From Thermoanaerobaculia bacterium (GTDB lineage Bacteria > Acidobacteriota > Thermoanaerobaculia > Multivoradales > Multivoraceae), in NCBI GenBank assembly GCA_963666565.1, contig OY762911.1:992001-1056000 (forward strand): DNA of 64,000 nucleotides, read 5' to 3'. Numbering within the stretch: position 1 is the stretch's first letter; every line of letters begins with the position of its first letter. The position numbers were made by a program, and so were the translations under genes. Shown here in pieces: positions 40,484 through 52,747 of the stretch. The notes under the pieces are model-generated. The model saw nothing but the letters and a program-made list of their open reading frames with translations. It made no database searches and was not told the DNA's origin.

Positions 40484-42043
40484 GTGGACACCCCCTCCCT
40501 CCACATCGTCGACTACCTGATCGTCGGGGCGAGCCTCGTCCTGTCGGTCGGGGTCGGCGTCCGCTTTGCGAAGGCCCAATCGACAACCTCGAAGTACTTC
40601 GCCGCCGGCCGCAACGTGCCGGTGTGGGCCATCGGCCTGTCGATCTTCGCGACGCTGATCAGCAGCCTCACCTTCCTGGCCTACCCGGGCGACGGCTTCG
40701 CCGGCGACTGGGTGCGCCTGGTGCAGGGCCTGATGGTGCCGATCGTCGTGCTGCTCGGCATCGGCTTCATCGTGCCGATGTACCGCAAGGTCATCGGCCT
40801 CAGCGCCTACGAGTACTTCGAGCGCCGCTTCGGCTACCTGGCCCGGCTCTACGCCTCGCTGGCCTTTGTGCTGGCGCAGTTCGCCGGCATGGGCTCGGTC
40901 TTCTTCCTGCTGGCGCTGGCGGTCTCCAGCATGACCGGCATCGGCGTCGTGACGGTGGTCGTCGTGCTCGGCCTGGTTGTCACCGTCCTGACGCTCCTCG
41001 GCGGGATGGAGGCCGTCATCTGGCTCGACGTGATCCAGGGGGTGCTGCTCATCCTGGGCGGCCTCGTCACCCTGCTCGTCATCGCGGTCAAGCTCGACGG
41101 CGGCCTGGGCCAGGTGTTCACCGTCGCGGCCGCCGAGAACAAGGTGAGCCTCGGCTCGTTCGACTGGAACCTGGCCGAGCTGACCTTCTGGGTGATGGCG
41201 ATCAACGGCATCTTCTACGCCGTCCAGAAGTACGGCACGGACCAGACGATGGTGCAGCGCTACCTGACCGCCCGGTCGGACCGGGAGGCGATCCGGGCGT
41301 CGATCGGCGGCGTGCTGATGGTGGTGCCGGTGTGGGTGCTGTTCATGTTCATCGGCACCGCGCTCTACGCCTTCTACCAGGGCCAGGCGTCGCTGCCGGA
41401 CGGCCTGCGGGCCGACGCCGTGTTCCCGCACTTCATCCTGAACGAGATGCCGGTCGGCGTCGTCGGGCTGATCATCGCGGCGCTGCTGGCGGCCGCGATC
41501 TCGTCGCTCGACTCGGACCTCAACTGCCTGGCGGCCGTCGCCGTCGACGACTACTACAAGAAGCTGCGGCCGCGGAGCACCGAGCTGCAGCGGGTGCGCG
41601 TGGGGAAGATCGTCGTCACGCTGTCGGGCATCGGCTCGATCGTCGTCGCGCTGATCTACGTCGCCGTCGGCGACGCGGGCGTGCTGGCGACCGTGTTCGC
41701 CCTCTACGCGATCTTCTCGGGCGGCATCGCCGGGATGTTCCTGCTCGGCATCTTCGTGCCGCGCGTCAACAAGGAGGGCCTCTACGTCGGCATCGGCGTC
41801 TGCGTGCTGTTCACCGCCGCCGCCCTGCTCACCTCGACCGAGTTCAGCCTCGGCGGCGAGCCGCGCATCTGGCTGGATTTGGGCCCGCTCAACTACACGC
41901 AGCACAACTACATGCTCGGCGTGTACAGCCACATCGTGCTGTTCGGTGTCGCCTGGGCGGCGAGTTGCTTCTTCCCCGCGCGGGACGTGGATCGGAACCT
42001 GACCTATGCTGGCTGGAAAGATCGGAAGCGAAGCGAGGCTTGA
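40484..42043 (+). CDS. Sodium:solute symporter (SSS family)
   Basis: YFAAGRNVP, SAYEYFERRFG, GGMEAVIWLDVIQ, DQTMVQRYL, AAAISSLDSDLN. Confidence 0.95.
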   Translation: MDTPSLHIVDYLIVGASLVLSVGVGVRFAKAQSTTSKYFAAGRNVPVWAIGLSIFATLISSLTFLAYPGDGFAGDWVRLVQGLMVPIVVLLGIGFIVPMYRKVIGLSAYEYFERRFGYLARLYASLAFVLAQFAGMGSVFFLLALAVSSMTGIGVVTVVVVLGLVVTVLTLLGGMEAVIWLDVIQGVLLILGGLVTLLVIAVKLDGGLGQVFTVAAAENKVSLGSFDWNLAELTFWVMAINGIFYAVQKYGTDQTMVQRYLTARSDREAIRASIGGVLMVVPVWVLFMFIGTALYAFYQGQASLPDGLRADAVFPHFILNEMPVGVVGLIIAALLAAAISSLDSDLNCLAAVAVDDYYKKLRPRSTELQRVRVGKIVVTLSGIGSIVVALIYVAVGDAGVLATVFALYAIFSGGIAGMFLLGIFVPRVNKEGLYVGIGVCVLFTAAALLTSTEFSLGGEPRIWLDLGPLNYTQHNYMLGVYSHIVLFGVAWAASCFFPARDVDRNLTYAGWKDRKRSEA

Positions 42044-42055
42044 GGAGGTGACGAG

Positions 42056-43636
42056 GTGAAGCAGCAGTGGTGCTCTGGGTGCGCGGGTCTTCTGACCCGC
42101 TTGCCGCCGAAGGCGGCAGCAAAATCGCCGCCGGCGAAGCCGGCGACCGCATTCCCTGGGCTGCGCCGCTTCGCGGCTTCGCCCAGAGGCGGGTCAGAAG
42201 ACCCGCGCACCCAGAGATACGGCATCGGCTTGGCGGCACTCCTCCTCCTCGCCGCCTGCGCCGCTCCTGACGCCACACCGCCCACCACCGACACCAACAC
42301 CCCCTGGAACGTAGTCCTCTTCCTCGCCGACGACCTCGCCTGGAACCAGGTCGGCTACCACGGCACGACCTTCTACGAAACGCCGACCATCGACGCCGTC
42401 GCCGCCGCCGGCATGACCTTCTCGAACGCCTACTCGGCCAACCCCGTCTGCTCGCCGACCCGCGCCAGCCTGATGACCGGCAAGAACCCGGCGCGTCTCC
42501 AGATCACCGACTACATCCCCGGCAGCCCGTACCCGTACGCGCGCCTCCTGCGCCCGGCGGAGGTCCCCGGCCTGCCGCTCGAAGAGGTAACGCTCGCCGA
42601 GCTCTTCAAGTCCCGGGGCTACGCCACCGGCCACTTCGGCAAGTGGCACCTCAACGTCGACAAGGAGTACGTGCCCGGCCGGCCGATGGACCCGGCTTCC
42701 CAGGGCTTCGACGACATCCTGACCACCGTCAAGCCGGAGTACGAGGACGACCCGCTCGCCGACGCCCACCACGCCCGCGAGATCACGGACCGGTCGCTCG
42801 CCTTCCTCGACGCGAACCGGGACAACCCGTTCTTCCTCTACGTCACCCACCACGTCGTCCACCGACCGCTGCTGGAGGACCCGAAGCTGATCGCCAAGTA
42901 CGAGGCGAAGCCCGGCGCCGACGACCCGGTCAACAACTCGATCATGGGCGCGATGATCGAGACGATGGACACCGGCTTCGGGCAGATCCTCGACCGCATC
43001 GAGGAGCACGGCCTGACCGAGCGGACGATCGTCATCTTCTACTCCGACAACGGCGGCTTCGAGCAGCTCCAGGCGCAGGACCCCTTCCGCGGCGGCAAGG
43101 CGATGATCTGGGAAGGCGGCATCCGCGTGCCGCTGGCCGTCAAGTGGCCGGGCGTGGTCGAGCCCGGCAGCGCCAGCGACGAACTGATCACCTCGGACGA
43201 CTTCTTCGCGACGATCGCCGGCATCCTCGGCGTCGACGAACTCCCCGCCGACATCGACGGCGTGAGCCTCCTGCCGGTGCTCGACGGGACCGGCTCGCTC
43301 GACCGCGACACCCTCTACTTCCACTACCCGCACTACCACCACCTCGGCTACATGCCCGCCGGCGCGATCCGGCAAGGCGACTACAAGCTGATCGAGTGGT
43401 TCGAAGGCACGATCGCCGGGGTGGGCCCCGCCGTCAGCCTCTTCAACCTGGCAAAGGACCCCGGCGAGACGACCAACCTGGCCGCCGAGAAACCCGAGCT
43501 GGCTGACAGCCTGCTCCAGCAACTCGCCGCCTGGCGCCAGGAGATCGGCGCCGACGAGATGACCGTCAACCCCGGCTACGAGGAAGCCCGCCACGACTGG
43601 CGCTTCGTCGACGAACACGGAGGCGACGCCAGATGA
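42056..43636 (+). CDS. Cys-type sulfatase, lipoprotein; a REPIN lies within the n-region
   Basis: ADDL, CSPTR, GKWHL, SDNG, EGGIRVP; AGGAGG-7 nt-GTG; lipobox LAAC. Confidence 0.93.
   Translation: MKQQWCSGCAGLLTRLPPKAAAKSPPAKPATAFPGLRRFAASPRGGSEDPRTQRYGIGLAALLLLAACAAPDATPPTTDTNTPWNVVLFLADDLAWNQVGYHGTTFYETPTIDAVAAAGMTFSNAYSANPVCSPTRASLMTGKNPARLQITDYIPGSPYPYARLLRPAEVPGLPLEEVTLAELFKSRGYATGHFGKWHLNVDKEYVPGRPMDPASQGFDDILTTVKPEYEDDPLADAHHAREITDRSLAFLDANRDNPFFLYVTHHVVHRPLLEDPKLIAKYEAKPGADDPVNNSIMGAMIETMDTGFGQILDRIEEHGLTERTIVIFYSDNGGFEQLQAQDPFRGGKAMIWEGGIRVPLAVKWPGVVEPGSASDELITSDDFFATIAGILGVDELPADIDGVSLLPVLDGTGSLDRDTLYFHYPHYHHLGYMPAGAIRQGDYKLIEWFEGTIAGVGPAVSLFNLAKDPGETTNLAAEKPELADSLLQQLAAWRQEIGADEMTVNPGYEEARHDWRFVDEHGGDAR
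42075..42214. repeat. REPIN inside the sulfatase 5' coding region
   Basis: Perfect inverted REP-A ends. Confidence 0.93.
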
Positions 43637-43642
43637 AGAACG

Positions 43643-43839
43643 CTGGGTGCGCGGGTCTTCCGACCCGCACTGGGTGCGCGGGTCTTCCGACCCGCACTGG
43701 GTGCGCGGGTCTTCTGACCCGCATGCCGCCGGAGGCGGCAAGGAACATTGTCGCCGGCCCTTGGCCGGCGGCCGCTCTTCCCGGGCTACGCCGCTCCGCG
43801 GCTTCGCCCCCATGCGGGTCGGAAGACCCGCGCACCCAG
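43643..43839. repeat. Three tandem REP-A (27-bp period), spacer, inverted REP-A
   Basis: Copies at 43643, 43670 and 43697; inverted copy at 43814-43839. Confidence 0.93.
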
Positions 43840-43895
43840 GGAACAGCCGTCGGCATGGGCAGGTTCGCTGCCTGAGTTGAGGAACCGGGAGCCGC

Positions 43896-45224
43896 ATGAC
43901 CACTCTCAACCGCCGCGATGCTCTTCTCGCCGCCCTCGGCCTCGGCGCCGCCGGTGCCGCCCGTCCCCTGCGCGCCCTGCGGCGACAACCCCAACAACAC
44001 GGCCCCCTAGAACGCACCTTCGAAGACGCCAAGCCCCTCAACCTCCGCATCACCGACCTCCGCACCTTCCTCGTCGACGCCGGCAACGACGAGAACTTCG
44101 TCTTCGTCAAGCTCTACACCAACCAGGGCATCACCGGCCTCGGCGAAGGCACCCTCGCCAACAAGGGCGAGGTCGTCGCCGCCGCCATCGAGAACCACAA
44201 GCGCTACCTCGTCGGCAAGGATCCGACCGAGATCGAGCGCCACTGGCGCGGCATGTTCATCGGCCCGCGCTACCGCGGCGGCCCGGTCCTCATGTCGGCG
44301 CTCTCCGCGGTCGAGATAGCCATGTGGGACATCCTCGGGCAGGCCCTCGGCCAGCCGATCTGGCAGCTCCTCGGCGGCAAGGCCCGCGACAGGGTGCGGC
44401 TCTACTGCCACGAGGGCTACCTCGAACGGATCGGCCACCGCCAGAAGCGCCGCGCCGCCGACTACGAGGAGGAGCTCGACCTCTGGCGCCAGAAGAAGGA
44501 GGACGGCTGGACCTGCGTCAAGGGCGGCTTCTACCCGGGCGGCCGGCCCATCGACCACCGCGTGTCGATCCGCCGCGGCGTCGAGCACCTCGCCCGGGTG
44601 CGCGAGATCGTCGGGCCGGACTTCGACATCATCGTCGAGGCGCACGGCAAGCCGACGCCGCTCTCCGCCGTCGAGTTCTGCAACCGGGTGGAGGAGTACC
44701 GGCCGTTCTGGGTCGAGGAGGTCACCCAGCTCGAGAACGAGGCGATCGAGGAGGTCCGCCAGATCCGCGCCCAGACCCGCGTGCCGCTGGCGACCGGCGA
44801 GCGCCTCACCTCCCGCTACCACTTCGCGCCGCTGTGCTCGGAGCGGCTCGTCGACGTGATCATGCCGGACGTCGTCCACGTCGGCGGCATCTCCGAGCTG
44901 CGCAAGATCGCGATCATGGCCGAGGGCTTCCGTGTCGACGTGTCGCCGCACAACCCGCAGAGCGAGGTCGGCACCCTTGCCTCCATGCACGTCTGCGCCT
45001 GCACCCCGAACTGCACCATCCTCGAAATCGGCAGCGGCCAGGACCCGTTCTGGCAGGACCTCTTCCACGGCGGCCACTTCTGCTACGAACGCGGCTTCGC
45101 CAAGCTCCCCAGCCGCCCCGGCCTCGGCATCGACCTCGACGAGGAAGTCGCCGCGAAGTTCCCGTACGAGCCGAAGAACTGGAGCACGTTGACCACCGAA
45201 GATGGCGCGTTCGTGGATCGATAA
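43896..45224 (+). CDS. Mandelate racemase/enolase-superfamily acid-sugar dehydratase (DgoD-like) with Tat-like signal
   Basis: LNRRDALLAALG, ITGLGEG, SAVEIAMWDILG, LLGGKARDRV, PLATGERL, PHNP. Confidence 0.9.
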   Translation: MTTLNRRDALLAALGLGAAGAARPLRALRRQPQQHGPLERTFEDAKPLNLRITDLRTFLVDAGNDENFVFVKLYTNQGITGLGEGTLANKGEVVAAAIENHKRYLVGKDPTEIERHWRGMFIGPRYRGGPVLMSALSAVEIAMWDILGQALGQPIWQLLGGKARDRVRLYCHEGYLERIGHRQKRRAADYEEELDLWRQKKEDGWTCVKGGFYPGGRPIDHRVSIRRGVEHLARVREIVGPDFDIIVEAHGKPTPLSAVEFCNRVEEYRPFWVEEVTQLENEAIEEVRQIRAQTRVPLATGERLTSRYHFAPLCSERLVDVIMPDVVHVGGISELRKIAIMAEGFRVDVSPHNPQSEVGTLASMHVCACTPNCTILEIGSGQDPFWQDLFHGGHFCYERGFAKLPSRPGLGIDLDEEVAAKFPYEPKNWSTLTTEDGAFVDR

Positions 45225-47082
45225 CGCTGGGTGCGCACCCAGAGCAACGGCGTCGTCGTGGTGTACCGCTCTGCTGTGGGCCGCCACCCTCGGCTGCACC
45301 GCGCCGGCCGCCGACCGCACCGCCGAACTCGCCGCTCGCGAAGCCGGCAACCCCGGCGGCGAGAACTTCGGCGAGTTCGGCCCGCCGGACGCCTACGAAG
45401 GCGACTCCCCGCACCCCTTCTACGGCGCCGAGAACGAGTGGAGCCGCCGCATGTTCGACGAGCGCTCCGCCGACCTCTACTACAAGCGCCGCGGCCAGCG
45501 GCAACTGCTCGAGATCCTCGACGGCAACCCAACCCGCGCGATCGAGTTGGCCGACGCCCGGCTCGCCGCGCACATGTTTGACGCCGAGTCGCTGTTCATC
45601 AAGGCAGTCGCGCGGGCTCAACTCGGCCGGATCGAGCAGGCCGAGGACGCGATGCTCAGCGCGATCGCTTTCGGCATGCCCGCCGGCCGTTTTCTCGCCG
45701 GACCGCGCGAGTTGCTCGAACCGCTCGCCGCGACCGAGACCTTCACGGCGCACGCGGCCCGCCCGAGGAACGCGATCGTCCACGGCCCCATGCTGGGCGC
45801 CGTCACCGACACCAGCGCCAGCGTCTGGATCCGCACCGCCGTGGCGAGCGGCTTCGAAGTCGTCGCGACCGCCGGGAACGAACGGCACGTCGCCTCCGGC
45901 GCCACCGCCGCCGACCGCGACTACACCGGCACGGCGACGCTCCGCGGCCTCTCGCCGGACACGACCTACAGCTACCAGGTCCTCGTCGCCGCGACCCCGG
46001 AACCGCCTCCGCCGTCGCAGCCGCCCGACAGCAACGCACGCACACCTTCGCCGCGGCCGGCAACGGACGGCGCCTCCCGGCCGCCGTCCCAACCGCCGAG
46101 CTACACCCTCCGCACCTCCCCGCCCCCCGGCGCCCCCGGCACCGTGACCATCGCCTTCGGCGGTTGCGCCGGCTACACGCCGCAGAACGAACGGATGTGG
46201 GACACGATCGCCGCCCACGGCCCGCGGGCGCTGCTCCTGCTCGGCGACAACGTCTACATCGACCTGCCGGAGCAGCCCGGCCCGTTCCACGACTACGCCT
46301 ACTACCAGCGCCAGTCGCGCCCCGAGTTCCGGCGCCTGGTGAGCGCGACTCCGGTCTACGCCGTCTGGGACGACCACGACGCGGCCTTCGACGACATCTG
46401 GCTCGGTCCCTACGTCGACCGCCCGGCCTGGAAGCTGCCGATGGTCGAGCACTTCCGCCGCAACTGGAACAACCCGGCTTCCGGGTCGGCGTCGCACCCC
46501 GGCGTCTGGTTCCGGTTCTCGCTCGGCGACGTCGACTTCTTCCTGCTCGACGGCCGCACCTACCGGACGAACCCCTTCGTCGAAGAGCGTACCATGCTCG
46601 GCCCGGTGCAGAAGGCCTGGCTGCTCGACGGGCTGCGCGCCTCCGAGGCCACGTTCAAGGTGATCGCCAGCCCGGTCGCCTGGGCCGACGGCGCCAAGCC
46701 CGGCAGCCGCGACACCTGGTCGGGGTTCCCGGAGGAGCGGGAGGAGATCTTCCGTTTCGTCGAGGAGAACGACGTGACCGGCGTGGTGCTGCTCTCGTCC
46801 GACCGGCACCGGTCCGAGGCATGGGTGATCGAGCGCGAGAGCGGCTATGCGTTCCACGACCTCCTGAGCGGGCAGTTGACGAATATCCACACGCATCCGA
46901 TCGAGCCGGGCGCGCTGTTCAGTTACAACCTGAAGGACTCGTTCGGCTTGCTGACGTTCGAGACGGTGGGTGAGGATCCGCGGGTGACTTACCGGATCTA
47001 CTCGATCGACGATGAGTTGGTGGAGACTCTGGTGATTCCGCACGCCGACCTCGCCGTCACCGGTGAAGAAGGGAAGCAGTAA
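45202..47082 (+). CDS. PhoD-family alkaline phosphatase/phosphodiesterase with a TPR-like N-terminal region
   Basis: HGPMLGAVT, LGDNVYID, WDDHD, LDGRTYR, SDRH; start uncertain. Confidence 0.88.
   Translation: MARSWIDNAGCAPRATASSWCTALLWAATLGCTAPAADRTAELAAREAGNPGGENFGEFGPPDAYEGDSPHPFYGAENEWSRRMFDERSADLYYKRRGQRQLLEILDGNPTRAIELADARLAAHMFDAESLFIKAVARAQLGRIEQAEDAMLSAIAFGMPAGRFLAGPRELLEPLAATETFTAHAARPRNAIVHGPMLGAVTDTSASVWIRTAVASGFEVVATAGNERHVASGATAADRDYTGTATLRGLSPDTTYSYQVLVAATPEPPPPSQPPDSNARTPSPRPATDGASRPPSQPPSYTLRTSPPPGAPGTVTIAFGGCAGYTPQNERMWDTIAAHGPRALLLLGDNVYIDLPEQPGPFHDYAYYQRQSRPEFRRLVSATPVYAVWDDHDAAFDDIWLGPYVDRPAWKLPMVEHFRRNWNNPASGSASHPGVWFRFSLGDVDFFLLDGRTYRTNPFVEERTMLGPVQKAWLLDGLRASEATFKVIASPVAWADGAKPGSRDTWSGFPEEREEIFRFVEENDVTGVVLLSSDRHRSEAWVIERESGYAFHDLLSGQLTNIHTHPIEPGALFSYNLKDSFGLLTFETVGEDPRVTYRIYSIDDELVETLVIPHADLAVTGEEGKQ
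45227..45242. repeat. Minimal perfect palindrome CTGGGTGCGCACCCAG (fused REP termini)
   Basis: Two REP leaders joined with no hairpins or spacer. Confidence 0.75.
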
Positions 47083-49970
47083 TGAGCCGCGCCGCGGGTA
47101 CCGTCGTACCTCTGGGTGCGCGGGTCTTCCGACCCGCCTGCCGGACGGAGCCGCGGAGCGGCGTAGGCCGGCGAAGAAATGGTCGCCGGCTTCGCCGGCG
47201 GCGATTCAAAGCCGCCTTCGGCGGCAGCGGGTCAGAAGACCCGCGCACCCAGAGCACCGTCGTTGCAGTCGCCCTACTTCTTCTCCTTGTCGTCACGGCC
47301 TGCGCCCCACCTCCCGACGACGCCAGGACCAGCGCAGTCGAAGCCACCGCCCTCTGGCTGTTCGACGAACCCGCCGGCCTCTACCCGAGCCACACGCTCG
47401 ACGACATGTCGGACAACGACATGGTCCTCACTCTCGGCCTCGGCGCCCAGGTCGCTCCGGGCCGCTACGGCAACGCCCTGCTGCTCGCCCCGCTCGACCC
47501 GCCGCTCGAAGTGCCCCCGGCTGAAGAGAAGCCGGTCGAGTTCGGGATGGCTCGCCTGCCGACGCCCGAAGGACGCACCGTCGAGCCGCTGAGCTGGTTC
47601 ACCGCCCACTTCGCGGCGCTGATGACGTCCGGCGAGAACCATCTCCGTAAACAGGTCGGCCACAAGAACCCGACGACCCGCGCGCTCAACATCGGCGACT
47701 TCGACTGGACGGTCGAGTTCTGGCACTCGCCGGGCGATGCCGCCGCGCCCGCCGACGCCCCGACCACAGGAGACGCACCGGCCGCGACCGAAGGCGTCGT
47801 CTTCGAGATAGGCACCGGCCCCCGAGGCGAGAACGACGTGGTCACCCGACTCGCCTGGTCCGCCGACCGCTCCCGTTTCGTCCTCGCTAATCAGCCTGCC
47901 GGGGTCTCCGTCGACATCCCGACCGCCGCCGCCCCGACCGCCACCGCCCCGACCGCCACCGTCCCGACCGCCACCGACGTCGCCACACCCGTCGGCGACG
48001 CGACCGCCACCGGCGCGCCGGCCGCCGCCGCCGACCCAGCCGCTCCCGCATGGCGCCACTACGCCTTCACCTACGACGCCACCGCCGACCAGCTCCGCCA
48101 CTACGTCGACGGCGCTATCCAGCCCCTGCCGCCGCCCACCGCCCTCGCAGCCCTCCCCGAAGGCGACGAGGCCTACTTCGCCCTGGGCACCGACGCCCTC
48201 TGGAACCGCCGCCTCACCGGCCTCCTCGACGAGTTCCGCGTTAGCCGCGGCCTCGTCTACACGACCGACTTCGACCCGCCCGGGACCTTCGCCACCCAAC
48301 CCGCCCCCGTCGAACTCACCCAGGGCCCGCCGCTCCTCTTCGCCGCCGACTCCACCGGCGCCCCCGCCGCCAACGACTTCGCCGGCGCCTCCGCCGCCGC
48401 CTCGACCGGCGCCTCCACCGGCGCCTCCGCCAACGCCTCCGCCACCGACTCCGTCAACGCCGTCGCCGTCGCCGGCGCCACCCCCGCCCCCCTGCGCCTC
48501 GGCGCCCGCAAGCACCTGTTCATCGACGACGCCCTCCTCGCCACCACCGGCGACGCCACCTTCACCGTCAACCCGCCGCGCCGCGCCGAGCGCGTCATCG
48601 ACAACATCAAGGGCACGTTCCGCAAGCACCTCACCGTCGCCTCCGGGGACGACGGCGTGATCCGCATCTACAACTCGAGGGAAGAGGACCACCTTGCCGT
48701 CTACACCTCGACCGACGGCGTCCACTTCGACCGGCCTGACCAGGGGCGCGGCGAGATCAACGGCCACCGCAACATCGTCATCCCCGACATGGTGGGCGGC
48801 CTCGGCAATCCGTTTCGGGACCCGAACGGGCCTCCCGAGGAACGCTGGAAGTACCTCACGGACTACCAGCGGCGCGGCCTCTACCTCTACACGTCGGCCG
48901 ACGGCTACGAGTGGACGCGGCGGCGCAACATCGTCCTGCCGTTCCGGTCGGGCACCCAGAGCAGCACCTACTACGACGACCAGCGGCAGGTCTACATGTC
49001 CTACCACCGCTCCGGCATCTTCCACACGCCCGGCGGCGTGACGCAGCGCAGTTCGGTGGTCACGGAGCACGAGGACCTGCGCGCGACCCAGCCGTTCCGG
49101 CCGCTGACGCAGCAGGAGTACCTAGACCTGCGCGCCGAGTACCCGCTCCGCGACCCGCTGCCGTGGTGGGTGGACAACGGCCCGCTGACGCCGGGCGGGT
49201 TCGGCATGGAGTACCCGCACCTCTTCGACCCGACCCCCGAGGACCCGGTGGGCACCGACTTCTACCTCACCAAGGCGATGAAGTACCCCTACGCCCCGGA
49301 CACCTACCTCGCCTTCCCGGTGGGTTACTTCCACTACTACGGCGACGGCCCGGAGGCGCGCAGGGTGCTGGGCCTGGAAGAGCGCGGCCTCGGCTCCGGC
49401 CCGCTCGAATCCCAGATCGCCACGAGCCGCAACGGACTCGACTGGAAGCGCCACCCCGAGCCGGCCTACGTGGGCATCGGCCGCCACCAGGGCCGCGACG
49501 TGGTCACCGCCTACATCGGCCACGGCATGATCCGCCGCGGCGAGGAACTCTGGCAGTACTACTTCGGCGAGACGCACTACCACTCGCCCCACACGCAGGA
49601 CCCGGACGGCCGCGGCGTCTACCGGCTCGTCCAGCGCCTCGACGGCTTCATCTCGCTGGACAGTCCGTACGGGCACGAGACGACGGTCGTCACGCGGCCG
49701 CTCACGTTCGAGGGCGACCGCCTGGAACTCAACGTCGACACCGACGCCGTCGGCTACCTGCAGGTCGGCTTCCTGGACGAGCGGGGGCGGCCCATCGAGG
49801 GCTACGCGGTGGACGACTGCGTGTACGTCAACGGCGACTTCATCGCGAAGGAAGTCGACTGGCTGGAGACAGGGACCGACGTGTCGCCGCTGGCCGGCCG
49901 CACCGTGCAGGTCGTGTTCCGCATGAGAGGCGCCAAGCTCTACGCGATGGAGTTCGTGGAAGGAGGATAG
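47082..49970 (+). CDS. Lipoprotein with a LamG/ConA-like domain and a probable glycoside-hydrolase-like beta-propeller; REPIN in the n-region
   Basis: ALWLFDE, DWTVEFW, WRHYAFTYD...YVDG, GLLDEFRVS; Asp-box-like YTSTDGVHF, SADGYEW, SRNGLDW; TAATG coupling. Confidence 0.75.
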   Translation: MSRAAGTVVPLGARVFRPACRTEPRSGVGRRRNGRRLRRRRFKAAFGGSGSEDPRTQSTVVAVALLLLLVVTACAPPPDDARTSAVEATALWLFDEPAGLYPSHTLDDMSDNDMVLTLGLGAQVAPGRYGNALLLAPLDPPLEVPPAEEKPVEFGMARLPTPEGRTVEPLSWFTAHFAALMTSGENHLRKQVGHKNPTTRALNIGDFDWTVEFWHSPGDAAAPADAPTTGDAPAATEGVVFEIGTGPRGENDVVTRLAWSADRSRFVLANQPAGVSVDIPTAAAPTATAPTATVPTATDVATPVGDATATGAPAAAADPAAPAWRHYAFTYDATADQLRHYVDGAIQPLPPPTALAALPEGDEAYFALGTDALWNRRLTGLLDEFRVSRGLVYTTDFDPPGTFATQPAPVELTQGPPLLFAADSTGAPAANDFAGASAAASTGASTGASANASATDSVNAVAVAGATPAPLRLGARKHLFIDDALLATTGDATFTVNPPRRAERVIDNIKGTFRKHLTVASGDDGVIRIYNSREEDHLAVYTSTDGVHFDRPDQGRGEINGHRNIVIPDMVGGLGNPFRDPNGPPEERWKYLTDYQRRGLYLYTSADGYEWTRRRNIVLPFRSGTQSSTYYDDQRQVYMSYHRSGIFHTPGGVTQRSSVVTEHEDLRATQPFRPLTQQEYLDLRAEYPLRDPLPWWVDNGPLTPGGFGMEYPHLFDPTPEDPVGTDFYLTKAMKYPYAPDTYLAFPVGYFHYYGDGPEARRVLGLEERGLGSGPLESQIATSRNGLDWKRHPEPAYVGIGRHQGRDVVTAYIGHGMIRRGEELWQYYFGETHYHSPHTQDPDGRGVYRLVQRLDGFISLDSPYGHETTVVTRPLTFEGDRLELNVDTDAVGYLQVGFLDERGRPIEGYAVDDCVYVNGDFIAKEVDWLETGTDVSPLAGRTVQVVFRMRGAKLYAMEFVEGG
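47112..47252. repeat. REPIN (141 bp) in frame in a signal peptide
   Basis: Inverted REP-A ends. Confidence 0.93.
47919..47978 (+). repeat. Coding 15-bp tandem repeat x4 (PTAAA/PTATA/PTATV/PTATD)
   Basis: CCGACCGCCRCCGNC units. Confidence 0.8.
48384..48443 (+). repeat. Coding 12-bp tandem repeat x5 (GASA/AAST/GAST/GASA/NASA)
   Basis: nnCGCCTCsRCC units. Confidence 0.75.
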
Positions 49971-49972
49971 GA

Positions 49973-52747
49973 ATGTTCGGCAAGAGACCACACCCTGGGT
50001 GCACGTGTCGATGCACGGGTCGGTGCGCGGGTCTTCTGACCCGCATGGCCGCCGAAGGCGGCGAAGGACATCGTCGCCGGCCCTTGGCCGGCGGCCGTGT
50101 TGTCTCGGGCTGCGCCGCTTCGCGGCTGCGCCCGAAAGCGGGTCGGAAGACCCGCGCACCCAGCGCACCCATAGTCGCCCTGGCCGCTCTGCTGCCCCTG
50201 GCCGCCACCCCCACCACCGCCGCAACAGGCCCCCAAACCACCCCCATCGACCTCGACGCCTACGCCAGCGTCCTCCACGTCTCCACCACCACCGGCAACG
50301 ACACCACAGGCAACGGCGTCGCAGCCACCCCGTACGCCACCCTCACCGCCGCCCTCGCCGCCGCCGCCGCATCCGCCAACGTAACCGACACCAACCGCAC
50401 AGCCATCCTCATGGCCGCCGGCACCTACCCAACCCACAACCTCACCCTGCCCCCGAACACCGACCTCTACGGCGGCTTCAACCCCACCTCCACCGACTGG
50501 ACCCGCGACCGCGACATCCAGGTCCACCCAACCATCCTCGACGCTCAGGGCGAAGACCGCGTCCTCACCATCGCCGCCGCCTCCGGTACCGCCGCCGACG
50601 CGACCGCCCCCGTCTCCGCCGGCGCCGGCACTCCCGCCACCCCCACCAACCGCCTAGACGGCCTCCGCATCCAGGGCGGCCGGGTTCGCGCCCCCGGCGG
50701 CGGCATCCTCATCGACGGCGCCTCACCCGTCCTCACCAACAACGTCTTCACCGGCCACAGCACTCTCACCCCCGAAGGCTGGGCCCCCAAGTACCTCCAC
50801 GAAACCGCCCACGACGGCGGCGCCATCTACTGCCGCAACGGCGGCGCCCCGGAAATCCGCAACAACCTGATCGCCGAGAACGGCACCCAAACCGGCCGCG
50901 GCGGCGGCATCGCCTTCGACGGTCACTGCGACGGCCTGATCGCCGACAACGTCCTAATCGGCAACGTCGCCGGCACCGCCGACACGATGCGCAGCAGCGA
51001 CGGCGGCGGCATCTCCATCTTCAACTGGTCGTCGCCCGAGATCAGCGGCAACGTCGTCCTCGAGAACTGGGCCTTCAACAACAACGACGGCGGCGGCATC
51101 TTCGTCGCTTACTGGTCCTCGGCCAGGGTCCGCGACAACGTCATCGTCGCCAACATGGGCGGAGACGACGGGGGCGGCCTGTTCGTGGGCGGCCAGGAGC
51201 ACCGCTACGACCGGCCGTTCGACCCGATGCCGAGCGCCGGGGACTTCTTCGTCGAAGTGACCGGCAACCGCTTCTTCGGCAACTCCAACCCCTCCGGCAA
51301 CTCCGGCGCCCTGCGCATCACGATGGAGAGCCGCGGCCGGGTCGAGGGCAACGTCGCCGCGCTCAACGGCGGCTTCTACCTGCAGCGGAGCGAGCTGGAG
51401 GTCGTGGACAACACGATCCTCGAAGACACCCTGCTCATCGAGACCAAGGAGGGGCTCGAGCCCACGCGCTTCAGCAACAACATCGTTGCCGGGTCGCTGG
51501 AGAGCGACCGCACCGCGATCGTCACCGCGTCCCTGATCCGCGACGGTTCCGTGGGCGAAGGCAACGAGGCTGGACTACCCGAGTTCCTCGACGACGGCCG
51601 GGAACTCCAGGTGGTCGGCGCCTCCTGGTCCGCAGTTGGCCACCAGACCCACGTCACCGTCGCGGCGCCGCTTCCCGCCGCGGATCTCACCAACCGCGTC
51701 GTCGCCAGCAGCGGCGGCTGGGGGGTCGTCCACTCCGCCTCCGGCCGCCACCTGACCCTCTGGGGCGACCTCCGTTCCGCCACCGAGCTCCGCCTCCTGC
51801 CGACCTACCGCCAGATCGCCGATTCACCCGGCTTCGGCAAGGGCTTCGACGCCGCCCGCGCGGTCTCCGACCACGAGCCGCGGCGCGTCAACAAGTCCAT
51901 CGAACTCCTCGAGCGCGGTCAGCCCATCTACTACGACGCCTCCACCGGCGGCTACGAGGAAGGCGTGCAGATGGCCGGCACCTGGGGCGACTACATCATC
52001 TACAACGTCGAGCACGTGGCGCTCGACTTCGCGGCGCTCCGCGAGTTCATGCGCGGCCTGGTCGACGCCGGCCCCACCCCGAGCGGCCACCGGACGCCGA
52101 CCGTCATCGTCTCCCTGCCCCTGCTCGGCCTCGACGAACCGACCGTCACCGCCGGCGGCTGGATGGTCCAGCAGGCCCTAGCCCAGGGCGTCCACGGCGT
52201 CCACCTCGCCCGCGCCCGCGACCCCGAGGGCGTCAAGCGCTTCGTCCAGGCCGCCCGCTACCCGATCCACAAGCAGGCCGTCGACATCGTGGGCGAAGGC
52301 CTCCGCGGCTGGGGCAGCCACACCTTCGCCGCCTGGGTCTGGGGCCTCAGCGTCCCGGAGTACCTCCAGAAAGCCGACGTCTGGCCTCTCAACCCCGAAG
52401 GCGAGATCATGCTCGGCGTCAAGCTGGAAGACCAGCAGGCACTGGACCGGGCCGCCGAGACGCTCTCCGTCCCCGGCCTGGCCTTCGCCGAGCATGGCCC
52501 GCGGGACCTGGGCCTGTCGTATGGCTACCTGGAAGGCCGCGCCGACCCGCCGCTGCCGCCCGAGGTCGTCGCCGCCGGGGACATGGTGCTGGGGCTGACC
52601 AAGGAGCGGGGGATGTTCTTTCTGGACAATGTGCTGCCCGAGAACGTGGCGGGCCAGATCGACCGCGGCGTGATGATCGGCGCGGGCCGGCGGGAGGATT
52701 CGGCGGAGGTGGGGAGGGAGTACAGCGGGCGGAGGATGCCTTGGTAG
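49973..52747 (+). CDS. Secreted right-handed beta-helix protein fused to a C-terminal HpcH/HpaI aldolase-like domain; REPIN in the n-region
   Basis: AGGAGG-6 nt-ATG; GND...PYATL, repeated GGGI/NN motifs; VEHVALDF, WPLNPEGEIMLGVKLED, GPRDLGLSYG. Confidence 0.8.
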   Translation: MFGKRPHPGCTCRCTGRCAGLLTRMAAEGGEGHRRRPLAGGRVVSGCAASRLRPKAGRKTRAPSAPIVALAALLPLAATPTTAATGPQTTPIDLDAYASVLHVSTTTGNDTTGNGVAATPYATLTAALAAAAASANVTDTNRTAILMAAGTYPTHNLTLPPNTDLYGGFNPTSTDWTRDRDIQVHPTILDAQGEDRVLTIAAASGTAADATAPVSAGAGTPATPTNRLDGLRIQGGRVRAPGGGILIDGASPVLTNNVFTGHSTLTPEGWAPKYLHETAHDGGAIYCRNGGAPEIRNNLIAENGTQTGRGGGIAFDGHCDGLIADNVLIGNVAGTADTMRSSDGGGISIFNWSSPEISGNVVLENWAFNNNDGGGIFVAYWSSARVRDNVIVANMGGDDGGGLFVGGQEHRYDRPFDPMPSAGDFFVEVTGNRFFGNSNPSGNSGALRITMESRGRVEGNVAALNGGFYLQRSELEVVDNTILEDTLLIETKEGLEPTRFSNNIVAGSLESDRTAIVTASLIRDGSVGEGNEAGLPEFLDDGRELQVVGASWSAVGHQTHVTVAAPLPAADLTNRVVASSGGWGVVHSASGRHLTLWGDLRSATELRLLPTYRQIADSPGFGKGFDAARAVSDHEPRRVNKSIELLERGQPIYYDASTGGYEEGVQMAGTWGDYIIYNVEHVALDFAALREFMRGLVDAGPTPSGHRTPTVIVSLPLLGLDEPTVTAGGWMVQQALAQGVHGVHLARARDPEGVKRFVQAARYPIHKQAVDIVGEGLRGWGSHTFAAWVWGLSVPEYLQKADVWPLNPEGEIMLGVKLEDQQALDRAAETLSVPGLAFAEHGPRDLGLSYGYLEGRADPPLPPEVVAAGDMVLGLTKERGMFFLDNVLPENVAGQIDRGVMIGAGRREDSAEVGREYSGRRMPW
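49995..50163. repeat. REPIN with 12-bp tandem leader units, inside the 5' coding region
   Basis: Inverted REP-A ends. Confidence 0.92.

Follow-up and report, generated by a model that had tools for sequence, protein, structure and literature searches.

Three genes of one operon in the genome of a Thermoanaerobaculia bacterium (assembly GCA_963666565.1) each carry a complete doublet of repetitive extragenic palindromic (REP) sequences, which lies in frame between a well-supported start codon and the hydrophobic segment (h-region) of a predicted signal peptide. The operon is part of a stretch of 64,000 nt that we call the window (OY762911.1, or G000:C1, positions 992001-1056000), and all coordinates below refer to this window unless a contig or locus is named. 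The genes encode a sulfatase (gene 1), a LamG-type lipoprotein (gene 2) and a right-handed beta-helix protein (gene 3). We consider it very probable that the repeats are translated in frame, as tolerated inserts within the n-region that precedes the h-region, from a conserved start codon situated upstream of the repeat and coupled to the preceding gene. Four observations carry this reading: the anatomy of the inserts, the conservation of their frame among orthologues, their enrichment in front of hydrophobic N-termini and the positive charge of the peptides that they encode.

Anatomy of the three in-frame inserts

The elements of the three genes are the following, all on the + strand.

42043-42058, +: AGGAGG (42043-42048), 7-nt spacer and GTG at 42056; start of the sulfatase, 12 nt after the symporter stop
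42056-43636, +: gene 1, sulfatase, 526 aa (Pfam Sulfatase, 4.7e-51, and SGSH_C; orthologue identity 81-93%)
42075-42214, +: REP doublet 1, REPIN-like (REPIN, REP doublet forming a hairpin), 140 bp; a pair of 26-nt arms in inverted orientation, with three hairpins between them
42224-42259, +: h-region of the sulfatase and lipobox Cys (residue 68), from the translation, counted by hand
47082-49970, +: gene 2, Laminin_G_3 by Pfam (concanavalin-like, LamG-type lipoprotein), 962 aa
47082-47084, +: ATG of gene 2, within TAATG, one base being common with the upstream TAA
47112-47252, +: REP doublet 2, 141 bp, encoding residues 11-57; interior in the orientation opposite to that of doublet 1
47259-47303, +: h-region of gene 2 and lipobox Cys (residue 74), counted by hand
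49961-49975, +: AGGAGG (49961-49966), 6-nt spacer and ATG at 49973; start of gene 3
49973-52747, +: gene 3, right-handed beta-helix protein, 924 aa (Pfam Beta_helix, 1.8e-15, and NosD)
50019-50163, +: core of REP doublet 3, 145 bp (169 bp from 49995 with a degenerate extra arm, 49995-50163 encoding residues 8-64)
50171-50206, +: h-region of gene 3, without lipobox; of signal-peptidase-I type by eye

A common layout emerges from these elements, in which a start coupled to the upstream stop is followed by 6-10 codons, a complete doublet, 1-5 further codons and then the h-region. Doublet 1 corresponds to residues 7/8-53 of the sulfatase precursor, and in gene 3 the ATG starts 2 nt after the upstream TAG, 5 nt away from the T of that stop codon. 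The inserts of the three genes contain no in-frame stop, and no in-frame ATG or GTG occurs from the end of the repeat to the h-region in any of them; in gene 2, position 47082 is the sole in-frame ATG, GTG or TTG before the h-region. The original prediction, made from the DNA letters without database searches, had described three complete REPINs of 140-169 bp leading in frame from a supported start to the h-region, with no later ATG or GTG and with different repeat frames in use, and its coordinates and descriptions of the inserts hold. Genes 1 and 3 have the frame of the 5' arm in common and differ in that of the 3' arm, and gene 2 reads its 5' arm in another frame. The label of beta-helix/aldolase that had been given to gene 3 has to be corrected to beta-helix only, as no aldolase family is found in its product by Pfam search.

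By hand count, the n-regions of genes 1, 2 and 3 measure 56, 59 and 66 residues and carry net charges of +8, +13 and +13. They lead into h-regions of 11-14 residues, with a lipobox-like Cys at 68 in gene 1 and at 74 in gene 2, as read by eye; h-regions, lipoboxes and the class of hydrophobic N-termini considered below were all defined by a Kyte-Doolittle window together with reading by eye. A twin-arginine motif within the repeat-encoded peptides was considered and discarded, for arginine pairs exist but their spacing, judged by eye, departs from the consensus.

At the RNA level, the doublets and their flanks give predicted folds of -133.1 kcal/mol for doublet 1 (42040-42240, z -9.4), -136 kcal/mol for doublet 2 (47066-47275, z -8.3) and -139.3 kcal/mol for doublet 3 (49957-50185, z -6.9). 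In genes 1, 2 and 3 the start codon is followed at 15, 29 and 24 nt, respectively, by the onset of the stem, distances that lie close to the edge of the footprint of an initiating ribosome, and for this reason the start codons should stay accessible. An 8-nt direct repeat flanks doublet 2, at 4 nt on its 5' side and at 3 nt on its 3' side (47094-47111 and 47253-47270), with two similar short peptides bordering the insert; nothing comparable to such a possible target-site duplication is seen at doublets 1 and 3, and we draw no conclusion from it.

Conservation of the reading frame among orthologues

Of the genus's 42 genomes, about 30 show synteny of the operon, and its sequence was fetched from 30; one locus per gene (that of genome G050) was left out of the counts, representing a misplaced match or a 2-kb insertion. 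For gene 2, when the first ATG or GTG from the upstream stop onwards is taken as the start, 27/27 orthologues have it in the frame of the mature protein, with no stop on the way, across an intervening stretch that takes 18 distinct lengths ranging from 96 to 435 nt. The same rule holds for 27/27 orthologues of gene 3, in which the stretch from the start to the anchor has 24 distinct lengths between 165 and 867 nt. By comparison, 23/54 and 18/54 cases have the other two frames open. For gene 1 the rule had to be abandoned, since it places only 10/27 starts in frame and the Shine-Dalgarno (SD) sequence GGAGGTG itself has a GTG; scored instead by a start preceded by the SD sequence, gene 1 has an open in-frame start in 22/27 orthologues, to which an overlapping start adds 4 more (26/27 altogether), the exception being G002 with its diverged 5' end. 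The doublets do not impose this regularity by their size: the lengths of the 122 doublets of the genome leave remainders of 0, 1 and 2 upon division by three in 34, 47 and 41 cases, hence they are not intrinsically a multiple of three. Throughout the genus the mature parts remain well conserved, with identities of 81-93% for gene 1, 67-86% for gene 2 and 64-80% for gene 3.

The same operon provides a control, namely the junction between the sulfatase and the enolase-like gene that follows it.

43637-43839, +: tandem REP arms and a REP doublet, from the sulfatase stop towards the enolase-like gene; intergenic, non-translated control

Here an in-frame stop (43878-43880 in G000) separates the repeats from the ATG of the enolase-like gene at 43896, and a start directly before the twin-arginine motif, downstream of the repeats, is present in 26/26 enolase-like orthologues. 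Among the orthologue spacers that bear repeats, just 1/16 has its first post-stop start in frame, to be compared with 54/54 for genes 2 and 3 together (Fisher test, p = 2e-14, kinship ignored). Where a downstream start exists the repeats need no translation and the frame therefore drifts; where there is none, the frame never drifts. Judged by these sequence comparisons, the position of the inserts between start and h-region and the conservation of frame among orthologues are far beyond chance, and initiation at the upstream start is strongly implied.

Short n-regions are found in only 2-4 of the 27 orthologues per gene, and those of gene 1 in G013 and of gene 2 in G018 open with the same first residues as the long forms. 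The short, repeat-poor forms of gene 1 (L016, L035) and gene 2 (L018) still carry the leading 9 nt of the REP head at that position. Such short sites may be remnants of deletion rather than sites never occupied, or may mark a preferred target.

At one and the same n-region site of the three genes, different genomes (L013-L044) hold different types of repeat: variants of the arm stem, other palindromic families (two or more) and tandem arrays, which bring the distance between start and anchor to as much as 867 nt. Between G000 and G001, the interior of the gene 2 doublet is inverted while the arms are unchanged. In G050, an element of the IS110 family, encoding a DEDD transposase of 474 aa on the minus strand, sits in the REP head a few codons past the start of gene 3 (L033, 8780-10665) and cuts the gene off from its start; relatives of IS110 are known to target REPs.

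The repeat family and its genome-wide distribution

The three inserts belong to a REP family present in high copy that has one transposase gene resembling the REP-associated tyrosine transposases (RAYT). The unit of the family is a 26-nt arm, itself a hairpin, and an inverted pair of arms combined with three conserved small hairpins forms a doublet of about 135-140 bp. In the consensus of the arm, GGGTGC precedes the stem GCGGGTC, without a GTAG or CGTC tag. The genome (4.79 Mb, 70% G+C, one contig) contains 491 forward and 429 reverse arms with at most 4 mismatches, which make up 561 loci: 343 are single arms and 122 are forward-reverse pairs (86 of these measuring 125-145 bp), and tandem arrays have a period of 27 nt. 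As a control, 200 shuffles of a 3.2-kb locus gave 0 arm matches. The large majority of the loci (483/561) lie outside coding-signal bodies. Measured over 566 flanks, the median distance of REP loci from the preceding stop codon is 30 nt, and the three doublets of the operon lie 29-48 nt after the upstream stop. The 50 loci found within the coding-signal bodies of crude gene calls are distributed with about 9 near N-termini, about 12 near C-termini and the rest internally; some of them may represent two open reading frames (ORFs) fused via an open repeat. Rfam covariance models returned 0 matches at E up to 0.1 in the region 41900-50400, and a plasmid collection searched with doublet 1 gave no match.

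The sole Y1-transposase gene of the genome (G000:C1:748983-749858) encodes a protein of 291 aa that is recognized by Pfam Y1_Tnp with 36.3 bits (cut-off 23). Four tandem arms and one doublet stand at the 3' end of this RAYT-like gene, and no arm is present 5' of it within the 1056 nt of the locus. The ORF (L045, 1057-1932) reads through the four tandem 3' arms, such that its annotated C-terminus would be encoded by the repeat. Loci are densest in the stretch of 700-800 kb, which contains 45 of them as well as the RAYT-like gene (749 kb), and the region of 600-1200 kb, which includes the window, holds 136/561 loci vs 70 expected by length. Arm copies with at most 2 mismatches number 856 in G000 vs 0-191 in the other 41 genomes of the genus (0-99 in the other listed genomes of a single contig), which suggests that the arm underwent a recent expansion in the G000 genome.

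As 562/732 frames are free of stops when all frames of the 122 doublets are considered, an open frame alone carries little weight. The original prediction had named as a possible refutation that open frames be no more frequent than expected for stop-poor, GC-rich repeats; open frames are in fact no more than is expected of a REPIN, so that openness itself is no evidence, whereas the frames of orthologues and the position between start and h-region exceed chance. What the open frames encode is nearly uniform in character, for 96% of the 562 specify net-positive peptides, with a mean of +7.9.

Repeats lie at most 200 nt 5' of a gene at 389 loci, and at 26 of these the frame of the gene is open through the repeat, with an upstream start and no in-frame downstream start. 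A hydrophobic N-terminus follows the repeat in 16 of the 26, as compared to 943/3597 genes (26%; p = 1.6e-4), and does so in 9/9 inserts of at least 80 nt without a downstream start (p = 6e-6). Gene 1 is absent from the 26 because of its TTG. The long inserts listed upstream of hydrophobic N-termini number 20, about 13-14 of them without a start between repeat and h-region, and a few cytoplasmic proteins have single arms at their N-terminus.

A possible origin of the inserts and its alternatives

How could whole palindromic repeats come to be part of the coding sequence of exported proteins? REP repeats would insert, or be retained, some tens of nucleotides past stop codons. In a packed operon, in which the next start lies at the upstream stop or within 15 nt of it, this distance would place a repeat among the opening codons of the following gene. 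It would survive there if those codons formed the dispensable n-region of a signal peptide of Sec or lipoprotein type. Nearly any stop-free frame of a GC-rich palindrome would produce an Arg-rich, positively charged peptide of the kind that suits an n-region, and translation would begin at the conserved coupled start to read through the repeat; after export the signal peptide would be cut off, leaving the mature enzyme unchanged. Only genes with dispensable first residues would keep the insert, because the n-region can be dispensed with, welcomes positive charge and is removed. The idea of the n-region as a safe haven, already present in the original prediction, gains substance from the frames kept in genes 2, 3 and 1 (27/27, 27/27 and 26/27) against the control (1/16), from the 9/9 long inserts before hydrophobic N-termini and from the 96% of net-positive peptides. 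We infer that the three precursors are actually translated, exported and cleaved, and that the insert would be neutral rather than useful. That the repeats change freely in type, orientation, copy number and length argues for tolerance over a selected peptide, while their presence in most of the genus may leave room for function.

Several points weigh against tolerated in-frame insertion. Translation, export and cleavage are deduced from sequence; the orthologues are kin, and counts such as 27/27 overstate their independence; the period of the tandem arms, 27 nt, is a multiple of three, and some changes in length will keep the frame without selection. The genome-wide counts use crude, home-made gene calls, and the NCBIfam model REP_Tyr_transpos scores the RAYT-like protein at 76.3, just under its cut-off of 80. 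A GC-rich stem of about 26 bp situated 15-29 nt past the start codon might, moreover, hamper elongation. Other in-frame start codons exist, namely TTG at 42101 (within the repeat) and at 42230 (among the first h-region codons) in gene 1, ATG at 50046 within the repeat of gene 3, and GTG after the repeat in nine orthologues of gene 2; because of them, dual or downstream initiation may occur in genes 1 and 3 and in those nine orthologues. The same codons, ATG 50046 lying in doublet 3, would serve an account in which the repeats are intercistronic or 5'-untranslated, translation beginning within the repeat or just past it, from an internal or non-canonical codon, and the apparent start upstream being there by accident. 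Such an account finds further comfort in the commonness of open REPIN frames (562/732) and in the survey of Di Nocera et al. (2013), the consulted portion of which regards most NH2-terminal REPs as annotation artefacts (PMC3733652). It meets, however, with gene 2 of G000, where no in-frame ATG, GTG or TTG is available from 47082 to the h-region, and with the location of the internal candidate starts, which are buried in the long terminal stem. Initiation at TTG 42230 would leave 9 residues before the lipobox Cys and no charged n-region. Above all, repeats that escape translation should let the frame drift, as they do at the control junction (1/16), whereas the frame is kept in the orthologues of all three genes. 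We consequently deem it quite unlikely that the repeats remain untranslated.

Alternatively, the repeats could be retained for a function and be doubly coded, either because their hairpin shields the upstream message or paces early elongation, or because the basic n-region alters targeting. That most of the genus has repeats at these n-region positions, with short n-regions in only 2-4/27 orthologues per gene, would fit such a role, as would the very stable folds and the onset of the stems near the edge of the ribosome footprint; REPs also generally sit just after stop codons, both here and in the consulted portion of PMC3733652. Against it stand the freedom with which the repeats vary in type, orientation, copy number and length, the short, repeat-poor forms having an intact gene, and the fact that vertical inheritance, or re-insertion beside existing REP heads, would likewise let repeats persist, so that retention for a function seems improbable to us. 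We attach a similarly small chance to a broader proposal, whereby n-regions would be the main intragenic niche of REPs across bacteria, the repeats being kept as a doubly coded RNA hairpin and disposable basic n-region, and occupancy throughout the genus would reflect selection and not only tolerance; the hairpin following the upstream cistron may, under that proposal, act in message protection or in the pacing of early elongation. That the three genes are decaying pseudogenes, or are no longer exported, is suggested by the unusual nature of a signal-peptide insert of 47-57 residues and by gene 3 of G050, which is parted from its start by the IS110-family element. The mature parts, nonetheless, are free of stops and 64-93% identical across the genus, and their Pfam domains are complete, rendering decay or loss of export extremely improbable. 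Tolerated insertion in the n-region is thus the explanation that we retain.

Comparison with known systems

The Rickettsia palindromic elements (RPEs) are the classic case of in-frame repeats in protein genes. By analogy only, they resemble the present inserts in being palindromes that are tolerated in frame within protein genes; unlike them, RPEs sit in many kinds of proteins, in surface loops or termini and not specifically in cleaved signal peptides, and the organism is unrelated. Proteins with NH2-terminal RPE-1 are expressed, according to the consulted portion of PMC3733652. This analogy had been aptly drawn in the original prediction, but its companion statement, that classical REPs are extragenic, was too strong, as intragenic REPs and their excess at the NH2 termini of ORFs are reported in the same portion of the survey, where most NH2-terminal cases are deemed non-coding (PMC3733652).

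The family in G000 shares many traits with the REP/REPIN-RAYT systems of Pseudomonas and Enterobacteria, as these are described in the consulted portion of PMC3733652: a short palindromic arm in hundreds of copies, inverted doublets, tandem arrays and a mostly extragenic location near the 3' ends of genes. It also has one Y1-type transposase gene abutted by repeats, a candidate counterpart of their RAYT. It departs from the REP classes published there in that its arm has neither GTAG nor CGTC and the interior of its doublet is long, conserved and made of three hairpins. It also departs from the NH2-terminal cases of that source, in that the landmark of the h-region and the frames of orthologues place the G000 repeats inside the ORF. 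The term 'signal peptide' does not occur in the main text of PMC3733652, and full-text search found no paper on REP doublets in the n-regions of signal peptides, although the supplementary list of intragenic REPs of that survey may hold cases. The only report on repeats in signal peptides that turned up in the literature search was that of Delihas (2007), whose consulted portion describes a single in-silico case, the MITE-like (miniature inverted-repeat transposable element) RU-2 repeat of enterobacteria in YPO1552 of Yersinia pestis, a small hypothetical protein (PMC2759123). There, the start and a portion of the signal come from the repeat itself, whereas in G000 the repeats lie between a conserved start and a pre-existing h-region; a test of the orthologue frames, as available for the G000 inserts, does not form part of the portion consulted (PMC2759123).

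Hence, the in-frame repeats of n-regions are a tolerated oddity of a known type and not a new mechanism, documented here by a comparative test of the frame and an internal control. The evidence is unusually clean that REP doublets at the 5' end of genes can be coding, while the printed survey treats most such cases as annotation errors, and it leads to a simple rule for where selfish palindromes can reside inside genes, namely the cleaved, charge-tolerant n-region of exported proteins. In high-GC genomes rich in repeats, gene callers may cut off such starts, and n-regions as long as about 60 residues may be turned down by predictors of signal peptides. The three genes also represent natural constructs with which to explore the limits of n-region length and basicity, as well as the effect of a very stable hairpin right after the start codon.

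The operon and its neighbouring genes

The three genes belong to a co-directional string of six genes within the window (40484-52747), all on the + strand, the other members of which are the following.

40484-42043, +: sodium:solute symporter gene, first of the string
43896-45224, +: enolase-superfamily gene with a twin-arginine-like N-terminus; start codon downstream of the repeats
45202-47082, +: gene of a PhoD-like protein with a lipobox-like N-terminus

Relatives of the operon are present in metagenome runs from sponges, and among contigs from two sponge metatranscriptome runs and two other runs, those of RNA libraries partly cover the genes of the operon with a likeness of about 90-97%, representing relatives. 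None of the read contigs among those listed spans a repeat, and the contigs of the best-matching run break at the repeats. All five enzymes encoded 3' of the symporter look exported, because beyond the three proteins described above the enolase-superfamily protein has a twin-arginine-like N-terminus (43896-43960) and the PhoD-like protein a lipobox-like one (45202-45300).

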